A stretch of DNA of 63,993 nucleotides, the filler included, from Dirinaria sp. TL-2023a (Eukaryota): the NCBI GenBank assembly GCA_051941275.1. It is 3 parts of 3 records of this genome, joined end to end, with 100 filler letters (N's around TTAATTAATTAA, not from the genome) between each part and the next. Parts side by side here need not be neighbours in the genome. Positions count along the whole stretch, not along the records: positions 42,937 to 63,993 come from JAVEBF010000269.1; 2 more parts are not named here. One strand, 5' to 3'. Every line of letters begins with the position of its first letter. The stretch's first letter is position 1. Both the position numbers and the translations under genes were made by a program. Below are positions 7,076 through 63,993 of the stretch, piece after piece. Under the pieces are notes generated by a model. The model searched no databases. It had not been told where the DNA came from and worked only from the letters and a program-made list of their open reading frames with translations.

Positions 7076-8804
7076 ATGACCGAAACCAAACTTAGCGGTC
7101 CCGGTAAGTGCTGACCGCAACTGTAATCTATTCAGAGGTCTCGCTGATATTGAGTTGAGCCAAGCGAGACGAGCTCACGAGACTGATGAATGTACTGGAT
7201 GCGGATTTCGATGAGAAAAATCTGTTTCCGCCACGTAAGGCCTTTGCAATCGGCTGCTAAGATTTCATGGAACTTATCCATTCGTAGAGAGGAATGAGTT
7301 GCTGCGTGGACTCAAAGTGCATACTCAGTCTGCTGAGTTTTCAGAGCCTCTATTCACAAAAGCTGTGAGCGCTAGATTTTCCCTATGCGGTAAAGGGGAA
7401 CTGATCACATATATCTTGACGACAGAGCGTAAGGACACTCTGCCGGCATAGCTACGACGGTAATTCTCTTACCACTTCACGAGAAGCGTTGAAATGCCTT
7501 GCCAATGTTCTGCTTCTGGAGAGCAAGACTCGTCAAATATTTGTCGATCTAGGCTACCCAGCGAAAGCCGCAGAACGATTAAAGGTACCTCCAACCAGAA
7601 TGGCCGGAAATGACCTTTTTTGGAGGCTGAGATTTTCCAGAATGACAATCGTGAAGACGAGCTGCTCAACTCCCGTATTCTGTTCCTGATGACTTATGAC
7701 ACCACACTTGATTTTACCGCTCTGTTTGACAACCAACAGTTGGCTGAAAGCGTCGTATCGGTAATTATATTTTTGTCAGCTGCATGATTGATACCTAATG
7801 AACGCTCAGAATATCACTCGGCACTCGAAGGTCTTCTCTAGATCGAGCCTCAAGCGTCCGGCTTCACCGAGTGACACTCCAGCTTTATCTGAGACCCTCA
7901 AGCTGCTCTTCAATCTGGCACAATTCTATCCAGCGCAAGCGCCTGCATTTGCCAAGTGCATACCTAACATCCTCAAAATCCTCTCGCGTATCCCTCTTGC
8001 TTCACCTCCAATTCAGCCACCAGTGACTTATCTGATCAACTCTCTACTCAATCTCGATCTTGAAACCGGCAACAAGCCCCTCTTTCCTTCTTCCGACCCA
8101 AAGTGCAACGCCAATCGCCTAATTTCGATCCTGGACGATGCTGTTCGTACTTACAAAGAAGAGGAGCTCGAAGGCCTCGCCATGCCCTTGCTTGCACTGC
8201 TACGGCGAGTTTATGAACTTGCTCCTCCGCTCGTGGCAGTACACATGCAGAATCTCCTCTTGCCATCCGATGAAGAACGTGCAAAGCCTCTGGGCAAGGC
8301 GGACACCTTAGCAGGCTGCTTACTCCGGCTTTCAACCTCTCCCGTAGCGCCCAATATTCGCGAGAGCATTTCCAGCATGATGTTCGAGCTCTCGGACAAA
8401 GATGCCGCAAGTTTTGTGCGAAATGTTGGGTACGGGTTCGCATCCGGCTTCCTGATGACACACAACCTCTCTGTGCCGGAGAACGCAACCGAGGGTTGGA
8501 GCACGAGTGGAGAAGATATAGGGGAGAAGATGACGAATGTGAACGGCCAGGAGGTGAATCCCGTGACTGGCCAGAGAAGGGATATGGAGCCTGTAGATCA
8601 AGGGCCAGAAATGACAGAGGAAGAGAAAGAAAGGGAAGCGGAAAGGCTGTTCGTGCTTTTCGAGAGGTAAGTCGACTCTGGTGCATATCTTCAGTAATTT
8701 GCTTACCATAGTCGCGACACAGATTGAAGGCGACGGGTGTTATGAACGTTGTCAACCCTGTCGAGAAGGCTGCTCGTGAGGGTCGGTTCGAGGAGCTGGA
8801 ATGA
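7076..8804 (+). CDS. RIC8: Ric8/synembryn G-alpha GEF and chaperone (multi-exon)
   Basis: EALKCLANVLLL, FVRNVGYGFASGFL, NPVTGQ, EMTEEEKEREAERLFVLFER|LKATGV motifs; ATG 7076, several GT-AG introns, stop TGA 8802-8804. Confidence 0.92.
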
Positions 8805-41319: not shown

Positions 41320-42219
41320 CTAGTGGGTCGTGACGGCTGTCCCCCGCCCAGGAGGAGCAGCAGTCGCGATGATATGAGAAATGCTAGGGAGGTTTTGGCG
41401 GTGATGGTGTTGCTGTTGCTCCTGTTGCCGCTGCTGTTGCTGCTGCTGGAGAATCTGAGAAGGTGGCTGATACGGACCGGATGCAAGTGAACCATGAGGC
41501 TGGAGCGGATATGGCGGGTTTTGAGCTTGAGGAGATGGAGTGAACGGTATCATTGGCGTTGTCGGCAAAGTATTCGGAGCAAATGACGACGTACTGCCAC
41601 CGGTGCTGCGACGAGAAGAATGGGAAGCAGAATACGGATCGTGCTGCGGTGCGACGTCCGGAAGGAGGGCGCTATTCCCGAGGCCGCTATCCTCAAACCT
41701 GGAGCTTCTATCACGGCGAGCGCTAGAACGACTGGTAGTCTTGAGAACTTTTACACCTTTCTCCATACACTCCGAGGCATTAGATGATGGTGGTGGATGG
41801 CCAGGATGAATGCGATAACTTACTTTACTCTCCACAATCTCCCACTTCTCGTTCATACGGCTGGCTATAATTCGCCACATCTGCTCTCGAAGCTCAACAT
41901 ATAAATGCGCTAGGTCTTCGATCTTCGCTTGATCCCAGTCTTCGGTGCTACGCTGCTTGTCGACGAGACGTTCATGCCGTTTACGGCATGCATTGGCGCT
42001 TTTACCGGGAAAATATGTCTCGGCAATATGCGTCCAGTTCAGGCCTTTCTGCCGAGCTTGCCTAAGCTCAGCGTCGTCTTTGGCAGTCCATGGGCATGCT
42101 GAGCGATTGCCAGCTGTTGGTGATGTTGGCGAGGGCATAGCTGTCACCGGCGAGTTGGTTGGATAAGGTCGAGTACGGTGAATGTTCTTGTTTGAAGATA
42201 CCTTGGGAACCGGGGGCAT
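41320..42219 (-). CDS. Myb/SANT-domain transcription factor with poly-Q tail
   Basis: WTAKDDAEL...LNWTHIA..FPGKSANACRKRHERL; 54-nt intron 41770-41823 restores KWEIVESK|CMEKG. Confidence 0.85.
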   Translation of the reverse strand: MPPVPKVSSNKNIHRTRPYPTNSPVTAMPSPTSPTAGNRSACPWTAKDDAELRQARQKGLNWTHIAETYFPGKSANACRKRHERLVDKQRSTEDWDQAKIEDLAHLYVELREQMWRIIASRMNEKWEIVESKVSYRIHPGHPPPSSNASECMEKGVKVLKTTSRSSARRDRSSRFEDSGLGNSALLPDVAPQHDPYSASHSSRRSTGGSTSSFAPNTLPTTPMIPFTPSPQAQNPPYPLQPHGSLASGPYQPPSQILQQQQQQRQQEQQQHHHRQNLPSISHIIATAAPPGRGTAVTTH

Positions 42220-42836
42220 CTTACTGGGGATGGCGGACTCGTATATGTATTACCATTTGAGGGAAGGGAAGGATCAATTGAGATTGTGGAAGAAACTGTA
42301 ACGGACAGGGAAGGAAAGAGATCAACACTTGAAACAGGTGGGGGCCAGAATATATATTGTATCTTCTTTCGAAGAAGGTTCTGATACGATGGTAGATGCA
42401 GGGTGCATAATCAGGCAAAAGAAGGTGACCACCACAGCAAAGGAGAGTGAACGGATCGGGAAAAGCTTATGATATTTGGGTCAACTATACCTTGTGTTGC
42501 ATCAGAAAGGAAGGGAGGGGTTGTGGGAGAGAGGCGAAGCATATTTACTTATAATTCAGTGCAGGAGCTGGAAATGCGGGTCATCATCATGGTGACCGCG
42601 AGAGTGGTCTGGGTTTTGACGCCAGTTCATAGGATAGTGGGAGGACTTAGTGGGTATTGAAACCTTTCTTTAGAATTGGGATAAGGCTGAAACGGAGTCC
42701 CTCCTGCACGATGAACGGTTAGTCGGTTGCTGTAGCCAGGGGAAGCGCTGCTGACCTATTCCGAGGCCTGCCTCATTGCCCTGCTTTCAGGGTTTGCACA
42801 CAGTACAGTAAGGCCAGGTCAGGTAAGCTTCTGGGT

Positions 42837-42936
42837 NNNNNNNNNNNNNNNNNNNNNNNNNNNNNNNNNNNNNNNNNNNNTTAATTAATTAANNNNNNNN
42901 NNNNNNNNNNNNNNNNNNNNNNNNNNNNNNNNNNNN
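42837..42936. other. Artificial contig linker (N44-TTAATTAATTAA-N44)
   Basis: Same spacer as at 21385. Confidence 0.97.
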
Positions 42937-44232
42937 GTTGGGTAGTGTGTAATAGGATGTGGGTCCAAGAACGCGGCTGGCGGCTTTTGGAAAATATATG
43001 GTTCGAGTGTTTGAGGAGCTTGAGATGGTTGATCGGCTGACTGGCCTAAGATGGATATACGTTGATATGAGCATTGTGTTTCGCGGGGATGTTTTTTGAT
43101 TCCCCCCATCTTACGCTCCCTTCTTTTTTCTTTTTTTCCCTTTCGCTCGCTGAGCTGATGAGGAGACATTGCGTATACCATGGCGATGAAACATATTTAC
43201 TAAGCTAGGGATATCATCACCTGGCTACCTTGTTTGGTTTGTTGTGGTTCCTCCTGCTTGAACTTTTTCTCCCTTTTTTCCTTTTTTTCCCCCCTTTTTC
43301 CTTTTTTTTTTTCGTTGGATTCGCGTTCTAAGTAGGACAGGAAAAGGGGTTTTGTTTTTGAGTTTAATTCCTATTGGCGACTATGAAAGGTATTAAAATG
43401 ATAAGCAGTTTTCGGGATCATCTTGCGGTCGAGCTGGGTCTTTTAGGTTGAAAATCTGATTTTTTCTGTTCTTCTTTTGGGCATATCCTTGGGGATTTGG
43501 GTTATTTGGTTTGGTGTTTTAGATTGAGGGACTGGGAGAGGGAGAGGGAGTTATCTTTGTTAGAGAGGCCAGCTGGATGCTGGATACTTCACATTGAAGA
43601 TGACAGATGACGAAGGGAAGGATATTTTGGGTAGTTAGGGGGCTGCCTGTTACAAAGGATTAGAATGGATGGTCAAAAATGGGGTTGCTGTGAGTATACT
43701 TTGTATAGAAACGCTGATGTAGCCAATTTCGATAAGATCGTTGGCCTGTGTTTGTCATCAGACTTGATTCATTTGGGGAGCTAAGTGTGAAGGCGGATGG
43801 ACTGGTGATGTGAGCCTGCGCTGATGCCTGTTTGATTGCCTTCTTAGAAGTACTAGATGTCAGTGATTCAAACTTGATATATGATTTAGCTAGATTCTTG
43901 TTTACCTTATGTCACTGAACTGAGGTTTGAGGGGTCTGCTCTGAACGAGGTCCTTGATAACACAGTGAGTCTTCCTCCACGCATATGAGTATATGAAACT
44001 TTGACCGTCACATTCTATGTCACTGTGTTGTTCGCTTCTTGAAATTCACACAAGGTAGGCTTGGTGATATGCATGACTGCACTGCCTCACTGGCTTGTTA
44101 TTTATCTTCGTCCTCCAGGAATTCTTCTTCCCCAGTACCTACTCTTTTCCACAATCGCACAATTCTTCTTGAGCGATAAACTCAAACACCTCAGCAGGTT
44201 ATCAAAACTCAAATATCTCTGACCCTATCACC

Positions 44233-58300: not shown

Positions 58301-60988
58301 CGGGTTGTTTGAGGGAAACTCAATAGTTGATGATCGGGGTAGAGCAAGCCAGCCAACCATCAGAGCCGGCGTATCTATCAGCTTAATCATCATATCTGAA
58401 TCAGACGTCGAATTTTCATCCCAGTGATGTTTTCACTCTCATCAATGATTAAATTTCCTATTCCGAGACTTCGATTGGAGCGTCTCTGAAGGGCTCTGTG
58501 CTATAAAAACCGTCTTCTCATCCTTAGGAGTGTGTTTAAGAGTCTTAGCGGTCTCAAATTTTTCTCAAAGATAGGCTTTCTCATCCTACACTGGTTTTTT
58601 GTAAAGAGGGTTTAATCCTAGTACGATTAATGAGTTCCGTGCTCCAAGGGTGAATTGTTTATCTTTCGCTATTGTTAGATCTAAGACCTGTTGCTCGTAC
58701 CGCTTTGGATTGTAATATGTCGCTGGGCCTGAGTTGTTGGTTCCCCTTACAGCTCCGCTACTTCAGGGCTATTATTCGATAGTCCTATGGGCACAAGGGC
58801 CGCAGAGGCTGATTTTTCTTGTGATCGGGTCTTCTTGTACCGTGGTAGTCGGACCTGAGCCGCTCCTTTGAAGGGAAACTCTCTCTCTAGACTTGAGCAA
58901 ATAGGCAGTAAGTCAGCTATGAAAAGTGATATTGAAGAGAAGGTTTTCAGTACTTGGAATGGAATCCTTACTTATACAGCCATTGTCTCTTTCTTCTTGA
59001 GATTGGAGGCGCAATTCGGATGATGTTCTGGTGAAATAGGTGGAAGATACGGAGTAATTACCGTTGCTTAACGATTATTTGCCACAAAGAATTGGGGGAA
59101 GAAGCGAGTGTCCGAAGAGCTCCAGTCTCTCGCTCTTTCACCACCCAGATGGAATATCTTATGTGATAGGCGGTGATATATTCCCCATTCGGTACTGTAG
59201 GTGGCTGCTCTCGAGCGGTTAATACCGTTCATAGCGATGTCTGCTGCCTTGGAAGTAAAGATCTTAAGCCATTGCTCGTCTCGAACCCCGCACCTCGTTT
59301 TTTTTGGCCAAGAGATAACTAGTATGACCATTAGGTGCACGGCTTGGAACTTGAGCGGGAGTGATATGTATCAATGAGAGCGCGCTCGAGAGTAGCGTCA
59401 CACTCGCAGCAGAAGAAAGGTACTGTTTCCGAGATATTGGATTCAGCCTGAAGTAGAGCTGTGTGATCCTCATCAATAGTCGAAAGAATCGTGCAAATTA
59501 AAAAACTAAGCATCGTGTCAAAAGATTCAGTTGCACTCCCTGTAGACCTGATCAACTGGTAAAATCTGTATAGAAGAGTACGTAAGAGATTGATCCAACG
59601 GAATTCGGGCTAAGGCTACACGAACCTCTGTTGGTTGTGCACTAGATTGCCAGGACACACGTACGTAACAAAAAATTTCTTACCTTAGCGCCGCAAGTAT
59701 ATGCCTGTAATTTCAAATGGAAGCTGAATTCTTGAACACTGATCAGATCTTGACCTACAGAATAGTAATACATAGCAGGTCTTGCTGCGATCTATTGAGG
59801 ATGGTTCTACTGTGGATATCTCTTTAGTGGTCCATGTTTTGGAGTACTAGGAGATACGGATACGATATTATATAGGCCTTTGAGAACGAATAATGTATCA
59901 GAAAGATGGCTTCGCGAGGCCTGGAAAATTAGAACTTCATCCAAACATTTAATAATCTAACAAGCGTATCTCTGTACAAGCAATGTACTCGGTATTTATT
60001 CGATATGAGTAACTGGGGAAAGTGTTGCGCGAAGAGCTCGGATGGGACAATTTTAGCTCGGAATCAAGTGAGGATGGAACTTTGACGGATAAAGGAAGTG
60101 TCCGGCGGTCGCTTCGTGTCATAAGCAGAGGACAAGGGACTCTATTTGGCCGTCCCAGATGATTGCTGGTCACGTATCTGGATATCTTTTTCCCCATTTT
60201 TTGTGCAGCTGGCTAGTCTAACAAGCGTCAGAGGATGTATGGAAAACAATGGTACGGTTTGAATTTCCGCGGAGACCGCTATTGAGATTATTAGGCTTGT
60301 TGGGGAAGAAAGTCTTGTGTTGAAGACGATTTTCGCATGGTGCGTCTGGCCGTGGACAGAGTGTTGAAAGTCTAACAGACCAGAGCCGAGCTACACATTG
60401 CTCATTTTCTTGCCTTTTGGGAGATACGAGAACATATGTGAGAGGACTTGTTGGGACAAAAGCTCACGGTGACCGTTGTCGGCGTTTGGGGTTTCTAGGT
60501 CTGCTAGCTCTGCCGTTGTATGGAGAGCATACCATTGTTGTGTATCCATCGAGGTGAAAGTTCCATGTGCAGGATATTGTCTGCATGGTTTATGAAGATT
60601 GATGTGATGATTCCCTTCATTACCTGAAGTCCCTCGAGCCTAGGGGACCTCGGACCGAGGGGACCGAGGGGACCTAGGGTTACGGTTAATTGAAATTCTT
60701 GCAGATTTCGGGCCGTCAATTTCTCCGACTTGGCGTTCCAGCGATAGGCTCGGACCTCGGGAGCGCGTAGAGTACATGTAGGTAAGCAGCCGAGGCTGAA
60801 GCCAAGGCTGGGCTTTTCGGGCATTCAAGAATCAACGAATCCAGTAGTACTAGTGATGCAAATCGCGACGAGGCTGAGCACGCTTAGGTACATGAATTCT
60901 TGCCATTAAATGATGATAAAAGCAAGAAGACAACCCCTCATCCTGTTTCCTAGCTTGTAAATTCCAATGTGTTGTGCTCAGCACCATC

Positions 60989-63277
60989 ATGGACCCACTG
61001 TCGGTCATCGCGTCCGTTGTGGGCATTCTCTCCGTCACTGGCAAGCTGACTACCAATCTTTTCGACTTTATTCAACGAGAGCGAGATGCACCGGCGACAA
61101 TGCATGGAATCATTTCTGAGCTGTCGGCTCTGAGAGGATGCCTAACTCAGTTGCAGCCTTTCATTGAAGGATCCAAGCAGGCTACTCGGACGCGGACCTC
61201 CCACGTGACTTTAGAGCACATTATTGTGATAAATACATCCTGCGTGCTAGCTTTATCAGAGCTAGACAGGGCTATGGACGGGTTCAAGTTTCAGAGACCA
61301 TTTTCGCTGTTGGACAAGATGCGATGGGCCAAAAATGAACCGAAGATCAATCGTTTACTTTCGCGGATCCGTTCATCTCAAAGCTCACTGAACATGATTT
61401 TGGCAATATTCACCTGGTGCGCTGTTGTTCTATTATATAGCAACTCAAAGTTCATTGCTTAATTATTTTACAGTACGTCTACCGACGAGGTCCGCAGAGC
61501 AGTTGAAAGTCTTGCTGCAACAGTCGAAAACATTCGTGCAACTTGTGAAGATGTCTCTCAGCGACTAGCCTTCATTGAATCCAATCCTTCAGGCATCAAT
61601 CAGTCAGCCATGAGAGAAATCGATAGCCTTCCATATGCTGATGCGGATTATGCATCATTATCACAAGGAGAACTGATGGACGAATTGGAGACGTTGGAAG
61701 TGCCAAACTTCTCAATACCGCACCGAGGTCAACGTAAATTCTCAAGCATCGATTTGGCTCATGATCATGATAGAGACATATCTCTAGGCAGCAATTATAC
61801 CACGCATATTGGTGCATCTGGTATTGATACTGATCTAGAGATGCTACTCCAAGAATCTAGGGCTTATTCACATGGAAGCTGGAGAAAGTCACGAATATCG
61901 CTCCCCTCCTCCGATAACTGTACGGCCAGATGGTCTTCCCTATCAGAAATCACGAATCTATCAATTATCTCTCTTCCAATCTCGCGACATGAACTCTGGA
62001 ACAAGCAGCATTACCAGTCCAACACTCAGAATAGCGTCAGGGACATCATACCCACCGCAAAGACGAACGCGCCAATTACTCCGAAGACATATATTGAAAA
62101 GCGTTGGTTCGATACAAAATCGAACGCGAAAATCAAAAGCTTCACAAATAACCGGCCTATACACCCAGTCTCCAAATATGGTAGGGCTTCTTTTCGATAC
62201 GATACTATTACGAGATGCCCGCAAATAAAGCTTCTTCTTACCGGTAAGTCTTCTTAGAGGTCCGAAGACTGTGATGTCGTACAAGAAAGACCTCACCCCG
62301 CATTAACCAGCTGGTCGTCAGGTACCCTTGCCGCTGGAAAATCTACGATACTAAAGCAAATGCGGATGACCTACGCCTTCAGTCTTATCACCTCACGCGA
62401 AAGGGACGACGCTCGGCAGCTTCTTCTCGAAACTACGGCAAGCGCAATAAGAGATATAATCGTAGAGAAATACGATGAAGCTTCTAAGATCAATTCAATT
62501 AAAGTGGAAAGTTTCATCTCAGAACTCCATGATCCAATCACAGCCTTCGCCAATCTCGACAAGGAGACACTCGACGAGTTTGCTGAAGTTGCATCCAGGC
62601 ATATTGATGACTATACGATAAACGAAATCGTGCAATAGTTTGTCTCCCTTATTGCTAGGCAAATCCCTGCTAACAATACCAGCTGCATTCGCCATAGACA
62701 TCGCCTCTTGAAGGATGACTATGCGGCTAACAATGATGATTTCTTACGTGCATATGCGAAGACAACAGGCGTTTCTGAGACTTACCTTACATCCCATCGA
62801 TTGGGCTACCGAGTTTTCGACGTCAGTGGTTCCGCAGCTGAGCGGAAGAGGAAGTGGAACATCGCGGCTGTGGATGTCGACTGTGTCATATTTATCGTCT
62901 CATTGGCTGGATACGATAGACATTGCGATAGCGATTCTAGTATTCGAGACGCTCTGGCGGTGTTTGAGTCACTTATTACTAGAGGTGACTGGCTTAGGAA
63001 AGCCACTATAGTCTTGCTGCTGAACAAGACAGACATTTTTCGAGAGAAGATCAAACAAGTCTCTGTTAGGGAGCACTGGCCTGACTTCAACGGGCCTGAA
63101 GGGGACTATGACGCCGCCTTAAAGTTCTTCACCGAAAAGTTTTGCTCCTTACAGCGAAAAGAAGACAGCCGAAATGTTTATGTCTATTGCGCTAATCTAA
63201 CGAACACTGAGGATTCCGAAGCTGTTTTGAATAGTATCGAAGCTCTAATGGTGTCCAGAAGTTCTTGCACTTCTTGA
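60989..63277 (+). CDS. HeLo-like/SesA-type N-terminal domain fused to atypical G-protein alpha domain (~702 aa)
   Basis: Exons 60989-61416, 61474-62243, 62322-62637, 62683-63277 join in frame; MDPLSVIASVVGIL N-terminus; G-alpha motifs IKLLLTG|TLAAGKSTILKQMR, DFLRAYAKTTGV, FDVSGSAAERKRKW, IFIVSLAGYD, LLLNKTD. Confidence 0.85.
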
Positions 63278-63848
63278 TCGGGATAAGATTGTATTATTAA
63301 AGCGAGTGAGGCAAAGCTTTGAAGCGACAGTGAAAACCACTCATGTGATGTACTTAGACGGCGTATTTACCGGAAGCTGCAAGCGTACTTCTTGATCGCC
63401 TTGCATTATTGGGCGAGATTCCTATATCTCTTGGGCAAAATATTACAATCTTGAAATCTATTCAGCAAGCAAGAAGTTGAAAGGCAGCCTCTAAATCAAG
63501 CGCGATGCTGGGCGCATAGGCTGACCAATTTGAACAAAGGACTTCAATTGATAACAATTATCCCGTTCAATCTCATTTTCCCTCGTCTTCAAGTATATCT
63601 GGTTCCCAAAAGGATTAATATGAATAGACGATGATAGATAGCGTAGGTATGTGGACGCACTTAGAGGGTATTTACGGCTAGGGTATGGCTAGGGTAGTGT
63701 GAGCCGTGCAAAATGGGATTTAGAGAGATAGAAGTGCGAATCCGCAATACATGAAAAAGGAGCAAATATTTGTCCCAAGTTAAGAGGGCGCCCATTTCTC
63801 GTCGTAAGCAAAAAGAAAGGATAGAAAAACGAGAAAGTAGAAATGAGT

Positions 63849-63929
63849 CGACAAGAGCAGGATTTGAACCTGCGCCCCCGAAGGGAATTGATTTCTAGTC
63901 AATCGCCTTAACCGCTCGGCCATCTTGCC
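63849..63929 (-). tRNA. tRNA-Ser(AGA)
   Basis: GGCAAGATGGCCGAGCGGTTAAGGCG-ATTGA-CT AGA AA-TCAAT, long variable arm, GGTTCAAATCC, CTTGTCG; oligo-T downstream on the minus strand. Confidence 0.95.
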
Positions 63930-63993
63930 ACAATAAGTTTTATTATGCATTATTTTTTTATATTTTCACTTTAACTAAAGAAAACAACCCCCC

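Follow-up and report, generated by a model that had tools for sequence, protein, structure and literature searches.

The locus considered here raises the question of what a G-alpha domain that has lost both of its catalytic residues is doing in one protein with a HeLo-like domain, a kind of domain described as an effector in fungi. It lies in a stretch of 63,993 nucleotides (nt) from the assembly GCA_051941275.1 of Dirinaria sp. TL-2023a, hereafter the window, which consists of parts of three records joined end to end; the part that carries the gene (42,937-63,993) is JAVEBF010000269.1, and gene positions are counted along the window. The gene runs on the + strand at 60989..63277, from an ATG at 60989 to a TGA at 63275-63277, and is a single intact gene with four exons, from a lichen-forming ascomycete. 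Our preferred interpretation, to which we give slightly less than an even chance, is that its product acts as a sensor-executioner of a non-NLR kind, with a pseudo-GTPase as the regulatory module.

The four exons sum to 2109 nt and join in frame into 702 amino acids with one terminal stop, which agrees with the four exons and approximately 702 amino acids of the original prediction. The same three intron places are found in L001, a metagenome contig that carries an intact copy of 743 amino acids with introns of 50, 76 and 46 nt. The parts of the gene are as follows.

60989..61416, + strand: exon 1, amino acids 1-142 plus 2 nt, with the first helices of the HeLo-like/PigL_N domain
61417..61473, + strand: intron 1, 57 nt, GTGCGC..ACAG, phase 2
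61474..62243, + strand: exon 2, amino acids 143-399, with the last N-domain helix, linker, helix, motif and start of G-alpha beta-1
ending at about amino acid 185 (61600), + strand: last N-domain helix, with the variable linker downstream of it in exon 2
61832-61867, + strand: DLEMLLQESRAY helix, in exon 2
61925-62014, + strand: conserved linker motif ARWSSLSEITNLSIISLPISRHELWNKQHY, in exon 2
3' part of exon 2, + strand: start of G-alpha beta-1, IKLLLTG
62244..62321, + strand: intron 2, 78 nt, GTAAGT..GTCAG, phase 1, interrupting the P-loop Gly codon
62322..62637, + strand: exon 3, amino acids 400-504, with the P-loop GTLAAGKST (to 62347) and most of the helical insert
62638..62682, + strand: intron 3, 45 nt, GTTTGT..CTAAC..CAG, phase 2
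62683..63277, + strand: exon 4, amino acids 505-702 plus the stop codon

The peptide created at the intron 1 junction, IFTCTS, is also present in P0002, P0008 and L001. Removal of intron 2 yields KLLLTGTLAAGKST (KLLLTG/TLAAGKST), which is collinear with the canonical KLLLLGAGESGKST, and L001 has an intron at the matching position. At intron 3 the donor starts at the G that ends an in-frame TAG, the joined codon TA/C encodes Tyr, and the join at 62638-62682 is the sole one that stays in frame. The donor TA/GTnnGTCTCC and the acceptor CAG/C, which follows a CTAAC branch site, are kept in L001 and L005, the donor reading TA/GTCAGT in L001 and TA/GTTTGT in the window. Two other donors for this intron were considered and rejected: GTGCAA at 62630 cannot be joined in frame to any nearby acceptor and leads to a stop after 4 codons when paired with the acceptor at 62682, while the donor at 62578, which is in frame and is used by the automated NCBI model of the locus (P0001), was dropped because L001 and L005 show the conserved TA/GTnnGT donor. 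P0001 (409 amino acids), the only database protein with 100% identity and one labelled Dirinaria sp., agrees fully with our model over exon 4 and differs from it in the third intron; it begins at an internal Met and is missing the first 110 amino acids and most of exon 2, so that the database record does not show the fusion.

Evidence at the RNA level comes from one public run of lichen-metagenome RNA-seq (X1; 0.06 share of sampled words), which covers 13 of 30 bins. Its contigs are approximately 95-96% identical to the window and therefore derive from a relative and not from the genome under study. A contig of 548 nt maps in two blocks, 61123-61415 and 61473-61728, and the 57 nt left out between them have GT..AG ends, which corresponds to removal of intron 1, and further contigs lie on 62689-62869 and 63073-63330 (exon 4). 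No RNA from this run extends across exons 2-3 or 3-4, intron 3 included, and the RNA check proposed with the original prediction for all three junctions is accordingly answered for the first of them, in a relative. These two unspanned junctions, together with the truncated P0001 model, are what could be said for two adjacent genes, one HeLo-like and one G-alpha, having been misjoined here. We regard this as very improbable, as neither a stop codon nor a start context is found between the domains, exon 2 is a single open frame of 256 codons that runs from the last N-terminal helix into beta-1 and so joins both domains, and the same layout is repeated in P0008, P0121, P0122 and L001. The original claim of a single gene is upheld by this continuous frame and by the repeated layout.

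The C-terminal part of the protein contains a full G-alpha domain, as had been proposed: exon 4 matches the Pfam G-alpha family PF00503 with 155.1 bits (E 3.3e-45, cut-off 48.8), and exon 3 matches positions 32-128 of the same profile (E 3.3e-5). The identity to canonical forms is approximately 30-35%. We aligned the protein with 10 canonical G-alpha sequences, in all 10 of which the Arg finger and the catalytic Gln are present, and compared the motifs.

ending at 62347, + strand: G1 P-loop, GTLAAGKST in the window versus canonical GAGESGKST
62738-62770, + strand: switch I, DFLRAYAKTTG, with the second (finger) Arg replaced by Tyr and the Mg2+ Thr retained
62819-62857, + strand: switch II, DVSGSAAERKRKW in the window versus canonical DVGGQRSER, with Gln replaced by Ser
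63023-63034, + strand: G4, NKTD, retaining the canonical NKxD
63185-63202, + strand: G5 region YCANLT, with ANLT versus canonical TCAT or TNAT

The alignment confirms the altered P-loop and the two substitutions that had been read by eye, Arg to Tyr and Gln to Ser, and equally the retention of GKST, the switch-I Thr and NKxD; DxxG of G3 is kept as DVSG. The protein begins with MDPLS and has neither an MG site nor an alpha-N helix, the former absence having also been noted originally. Approximately 390 amino acids precede beta-1, and the stretch just before it is disordered in the model of the relative P0008 (predicted local distance difference test, pLDDT, approximately 30). The helical insert was thought to be shortened, and it is, if barely: it has 115 amino acids versus 122-125 in five comparators, a difference of approximately 9, and is modelled as helices with pLDDT of approximately 90 in P0008. 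Since the binding motifs are retained and both Gln and Arg are lost, GTP binding without turnover is expected, and this second module (approximately amino acids 394-702) should be a pseudo-GTPase that binds GTP and does not hydrolyze it.

Exon 1 opens with the hydrophobic helix MDPLSVIASVVGILSVTGKL and, taken alone, matches PF17111 in Pfam with 26.3 bits (E 5.9e-6, cut-off 27.2); this is the HeLo-like family formerly called Helo_like_N and currently named PigL_N. We searched 1.84 billion representative proteins with exon 1 using phmmer and obtained 858 relatives at E<=1e-3, and scanned for domains the 63 of the best 150 that are at least 240 amino acids long (E 1e-38 to 1e-15); the counts of accompanying domains given below refer to these 63. 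PF17111 was found at E<=1e-3 in 57 of them, many over the cut-off and reaching 48.4 bits. The N-terminus had been described as HeLo-like or SesA-type, and it is the first of these labels that holds: SesA (PF17107) and HeLo (PF14479) had no Pfam match in the window exons at E<=1, SesA appeared below threshold in one relative (E 2.4e-4), and HeLo appeared in none of the 63. On the basis of these profile matches, amino acids 1 to approximately 185 are assigned to the HeLo-like/PigL_N domain. An AlphaFold2 model of the relative P0123, computed from an alignment of 150 sequences, consists of helices at residues 3-30, 36-60, 75-97, 108-142 and 145-184, with pLDDT mostly above 90. HeLo-like (PF17111) domains are described, in the part of PMC9815663 available to us, as pore-forming effectors that align with the MLKL bundle and that head NLRs.

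The linker was originally called Ser-rich, which is true in a weak sense only (Ser 14.5% versus 10.8% in the whole protein). Within it lies a conserved motif of approximately 30 amino acids, WS.LS..SL.E.SN.S...LP....ELWN...Y, which we call SLP. A hidden Markov model of the window motif SLSEITNLSIISLPISRHELWN matched approximately 60 family proteins at approximately residues 230-320, whatever domain they carry at the C-terminus, and the motif therefore belongs to the N-module. It is modelled with pLDDT of 69-89 in P0008 and with low pLDDT in P0123. The first module (approximately amino acids 1-325) is thus the HeLo-like/PigL_N bundle with a short helix and the SLP motif.

Domains accompanying the N-module in the 63 relatives were as follows.

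C-terminal G-alpha: 11
C-terminal RhoGAP: 6
P21-Rho-binding (CRIB/PBD): 2
ubiquitin-like: 2
Spa2-homology (GIT_SHD): 1
SH3, weak match: 1
ankyrin repeats: 1
PNP_UDP, upstream of the N-module: 1

The proteins with partners other than G-alpha are labelled Xylaria, Neopestalotiopsis, Colletotrichum, Fusarium, Bacidia, Bogoriella and Diplogelasinospora. Loss of the catalytic residue is seen in the RhoGAP siblings as well (P0177, P0187, P0197, P0208, P0234 and P0236), five of whose six clusters lack the catalytic Arg; the Arg-finger column of the alignment reads T, S, A, I, I, R, and HMMER aligned the Thr of P0177 to the Arg finger of p50RhoGAP. The PBD, SHD and ubiquitin-like siblings carry binding-only domains. 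A possible further partner is Cdc24-CH, which we treat as a lead: in the ESM Atlas, a Cdc24-CH cluster matches residues 1-303 of P0008 with a TM-score of 0.70, and PigL_N is found on 12% of its members.

Fusions of PF17111 and PF00503, an architecture for which a survey across fungi was suggested at the outset, recur among the relatives. They include the independently predicted proteins P0008 from Cladonia borealis (712 amino acids), P0121 (691 amino acids) and P0122, labelled Calogaya, and a like layout is found in shortened automated models from Heterodermia, Usnea, Teloschistes, Seirophora, Caloplaca, Gallowayella, Villophora, Polycauliona, Ikaeria and Xanthomendoza. All 15 species labels that carry the fusion are lichen-forming, the lineage of Dirinaria having been checked (Caliciales, Lecanoromycetes) and the other carriers being ones that we take to be lichen-forming; the search began from a lichen query, and the host range is therefore biased. 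A further protein, P0134 (633 amino acids), has DUF7923 and a CCCH zinc finger ahead of the N-module and the start of a G-alpha domain, and may represent two genes merged by the gene caller.

Switch II is covered in 12 fusion sequences (10 distinct clusters at 90%), none of which has the catalytic Gln; the residues in its place are S, A, G, A, H, T, T, S, R and S. L001 and L005 have Asp there. The Arg finger is retained in 2 of 11 (P0121 and P0122), and the switch-I Thr in 11 of 11. NKxD is present in 9 of the 11 sequences covering G4, the exceptions being P0008 and P0121, and GKST in 7 of the 8 covering G1, P0122 having GMST. A quick maximum-likelihood tree of 93 G-alpha domains, which takes up the phylogeny proposed with the original prediction, places nine fusion domains on one side of a branch with a support of 93 in the Shimodaira-Hasegawa-like approximate likelihood ratio test (SH-aLRT), adjoining one G-alpha group of Pezizomycotina. 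The end branches of the fusions are 0.6-4.7 changes per site long versus a median of 0.18, and long-branch attraction is possible. The N-domain was no less conserved than the G-alpha domain in 20 of 21 pairs (32-58% versus 22-46% identity).

The interpretation that we prefer would have the G-alpha-like pseudo-GTPase act as a sensor that binds a nucleotide (GTP) or G-protein partners and that controls or positions the membrane-targeting bundle at the N-terminus, the whole protein being a non-NLR sensor-executioner comparable to MLKL, whose four-helix bundle is held in check by a dead kinase. A sensing role, as opposed to an enzymatic one, is suggested by the conservation of the N-domain relative to the G-alpha domain and the very long G-alpha branches, and by the siblings, in which RhoGAP has lost its Arg in five of six clusters and the other domains only bind. 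What is inferred in this proposal is that GTP is bound and not hydrolyzed, that the membrane is attacked or the cell killed, and that the modules are coupled, while the gene structure, the domain identities, the loss of motifs and the family with its sibling fusions are established.

A number of observations weigh against a sensor-executioner, beginning with the N-module. The score of the window for PF17111, obtained with exon 1 alone, is 0.9 bits below the Pfam cut-off, and Pfam now names the family for a pigment-cluster protein. The P0123 model matches the executioner domains of MLKL with Z of 9-11.5 (best match: root-mean-square deviation 2.5 over 100 aligned residues), the CC-R domain of NRG1 with 10.3-10.9 and Rx-CC with 10.3-11.2, and NRC2, MLA13 and AtMLKL3 are also among its top 50 structure matches; in the tool used, however, Z below approximately 13 is background for helical bundles, so these matches fall within that background, and IncA (Z 13-13.5) and the four-helix domain of Cbl (Z 12.3) equal or exceed MLKL. 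A Foldseek search of the N-module model against the PDB gave no match at E<=0.001. The HeLo domain of HET-s is not among the top 50 structure matches listed, a scope that does not exclude it. Searching PDB sequences with the profile of alignment A1 returned weak short matches to influenza M2 and I-CreI, which we judged spurious. Given Z values within the helical-bundle background, the modelled fold is compatible with an MLKL/HeLo-type bundle, short of proof.

The context of the module weighs in the same direction. The original prediction stated that such N-terminal domains head STAND/NLR proteins; this is so in the literature, as far as described in the available part of PMC9815663, but none of the 63 relatives has NACHT or NB-ARC at E<=1e-3. 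The proposal that G-alpha replaces a NACHT/NB-ARC switch is for that reason reduced to an analogy, with no documented swap. No NACHT/NB-ARC or NLR neighbour was seen among the 46 of 93 window open reading frames (ORFs, at least 110 amino acids) that were scanned with Pfam, and an amyloid motif is absent, the C-terminus being the G-alpha domain instead. In addition, G5 has diverged in the window protein, and none of the predictions made here supports membrane attack, toxicity, GTP binding or contact between the modules; a complex prediction pairing the N-module and the G-alpha module of P0008 scored 0.00 and gives no verdict.

Finally, some related copies are broken. L002 and L003 do not differ from each other in the region compared, and both have one extra G in exon 2 (at approximately position 2879 of the L001 numbering) and a frame that stops at 235 amino acids; L005 has lost approximately 5 nt of exon 4, at approximately 1880-1895, within the Ras-like domain; and the X1 contigs have gaps of 1 nt at 61329, in an A-run, and of 11 nt at 62816, at a depth of 3-4, which may be sequencing errors or true frame-breaks in the relative. 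The family may therefore be dispensable. Together with the lost catalytic residues and the long branches, these frame-breaks would be expected if the fusion were specific to the lineage and were decaying or without function while still being transcribed. We consider this quite improbable for the window gene, as its copy is open over 702 codons with three consistent introns, L001 is intact, and copies that share only 22-46% identity still have GKST, the Thr, DxxG, NKxD and the linker motif.

The main rival to a sensor-executioner is a membrane-anchored signalling G-alpha paralog that is permanently 'on', with the N-module as a cortical anchor or scaffold in place of the lipidated alpha-N helix; locked with GTP, it would signal, for example, in symbiosis or development, and cell death would not be involved. 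Loss of Gln and Arg renders canonical G-alpha constitutively active. The missing myristoylation site and the disorder before beta-1 in P0008 fit such an anchor, and the sibling domains (RhoGAP, PBD, SHD and the Cdc24-CH lead) belong to cortical polarity and the G-protein cycle, as would suit a shared localization module. It is also consistent with the symbiotic signalling proposed, in the accessible part of PMC6652019 (Armaleo et al. 2019), for divergent MAG C-like G-alpha paralogs of Cladonia grayi. Slow evolution would however be expected of a signalling paralog, and the branches are very long, with pairwise identities of 22-46%; several copies are frameshifted; and the available part of PMC9815663 presents PF17111 as an effector domain that forms pores and resembles MLKL. 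On balance we see the anchored paralog as possible, if on the unlikely side.

The same fast evolution of the C-terminal module on a more conserved N-module, the signs of birth and death among copies, and the sibling fusions that copy other parts of the G-protein cycle could also be read as marks of an integrated decoy, in which the G-alpha-like domain baits effectors or toxins of antagonists and their action frees the HeLo-like executioner. Known G-alpha-modifying toxins act on the Gln of switch II and on the Arg of switch I. These are exactly the residues missing here and in most relatives, which makes a decoy less attractive; a NOD or repeat module is absent too, and no effector is known. 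We hold it to be improbable.

The protein can be compared with several known systems. It shares with HeLo-like NLRs and HELLP effectors the N-terminal position of the domain, the hydrophobic first helix, a helical bundle (here as modelled) and a match to PF17111, here just below the Pfam cut-off; unlike them, it has no C-terminal amyloid motif, no NLR neighbour in the ORFs scanned and no NACHT/NB-ARC or repeats (NACHT, NB-ARC, ANK, WD40 and TPR had no Pfam match in the four exons at E<=1), and carries the SLP motif and a G-alpha domain. MLKL consists of a membrane-targeting four-helix bundle, a linker and a nucleotide-binding pseudokinase that acts as a switch. The likeness lies in a helical bundle linked to a nucleotide-binding domain that has lost catalysis, with structural scores (Z 9-11.5) that do not discriminate; the difference is that the regulatory domain is a G-alpha and not a kinase fold, and has no known upstream activator. 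In plant XLG proteins, which have a role in immunity, a G-alpha-like domain with degenerate catalytic residues is preceded by a long extension that is Cys-rich and has a nuclear localization signal. The long extension on a catalytically degenerate G-alpha-like domain is common to both, whereas the N-module here is a HeLo-like bundle, and the origins are independent. With canonical fungal G-alpha (PF00503) the protein shares the complete Ras-like and helical-insert architecture and motifs G1-G4, and it differs by the absence of an MG site and alpha-N helix, by Gln to Ser and Arg to Tyr, and by a diverged G5.

The closest precedent within lichen fungi is the set of five divergent MAG C-like G-alpha paralogs reported from Cladonia grayi, with MAG C paralogs also in Endocarpon pusillum (PMC6652019, as far as its text was available). 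These are likewise lichen-fungal, highly divergent extra G-alphas, and Cladonia borealis P0008 is in our family; the five paralogs are likely, though unproven, members of it. In the available portions of that paper and its supplement they are described as G-alpha subunits only, with no mention of an N-terminal HeLo-like domain or of lost catalytic residues. The available part of a Xanthoria preprint mentions NLRs and HeLo and does not mention a G-alpha fusion, and our literature search found no published description of a HeLo-like/G-alpha fusion. What is new is the combination of a HeLo-like effector domain and a divergent lichen G-alpha in one protein, each kind being already known.

The gene had been suspected to lie in an accessory region. 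ORFs at 0.6-42 kb of the window match Rif1, Ric8, diphthamide synthesis (Dph), arrestin-like, GFA, prenyltransferase alpha subunit, DnaJ, URO-D, ribosomal P0, NXF/Mex67, PQ-loop, mitochondrial carriers, TsaD/Kae1-like and Myb; with such housekeeping genes in it the window is not obviously accessory, and that claim is not sustained. Between 42 and 60 kb, two ORFs have a RING finger and several others match nothing. The boundary between the housekeeping and the poorly matched parts (42001-44000) has a low G+C content of 0.435 and a strong GC skew of 0.27. The Ric8/synembryn ORF, whose product is an exchange factor and chaperone of G-alpha, lies at 7792-8667 (+ strand, E 2.5e-87), 53 kb from the gene; its occurrence in the same window as a G-alpha-like gene is probably a coincidence. 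A GC-rich short repeat of GGGGACC/GAGGGGACC units is located at 60638-60680, approximately 310 nt upstream of the start codon, and a tRNA-Ser(AGA) at 63847-63930 (- strand), close to the end of the window and 570 nt beyond the stop codon.

Extended to all siblings, the sensor-executioner idea would describe a family of Pezizomycotina, as yet undescribed, in which a HeLo-like executioner with the SLP motif is fused to dead or binding-only parts of G-protein and Cdc42 polarity signalling, its members serving as non-NLR guards or baits on G-protein switches and its G-alpha branch being expanded in lichen fungi. We regard this broader picture as doubtful; if it were true, the lichen-expanded G-alpha branch could police partner recognition or the integrity of the thallus. 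Two ways of controlling HeLo/MLKL-class cell-death domains are known in fungi, one through NLRs and one through amyloid templating. If the coupling between the HeLo-like bundle and the G-alpha-like module is real, it would add a third way of controlling an executioner of this class, would link machinery of the innate-immunity type to G-protein and polarity signalling, and would explain the 'unique G-alpha paralogs' that were reported in 2019 to be expanded in lichen fungi. For lichen biology, the gene provides a concrete candidate with a testable function.

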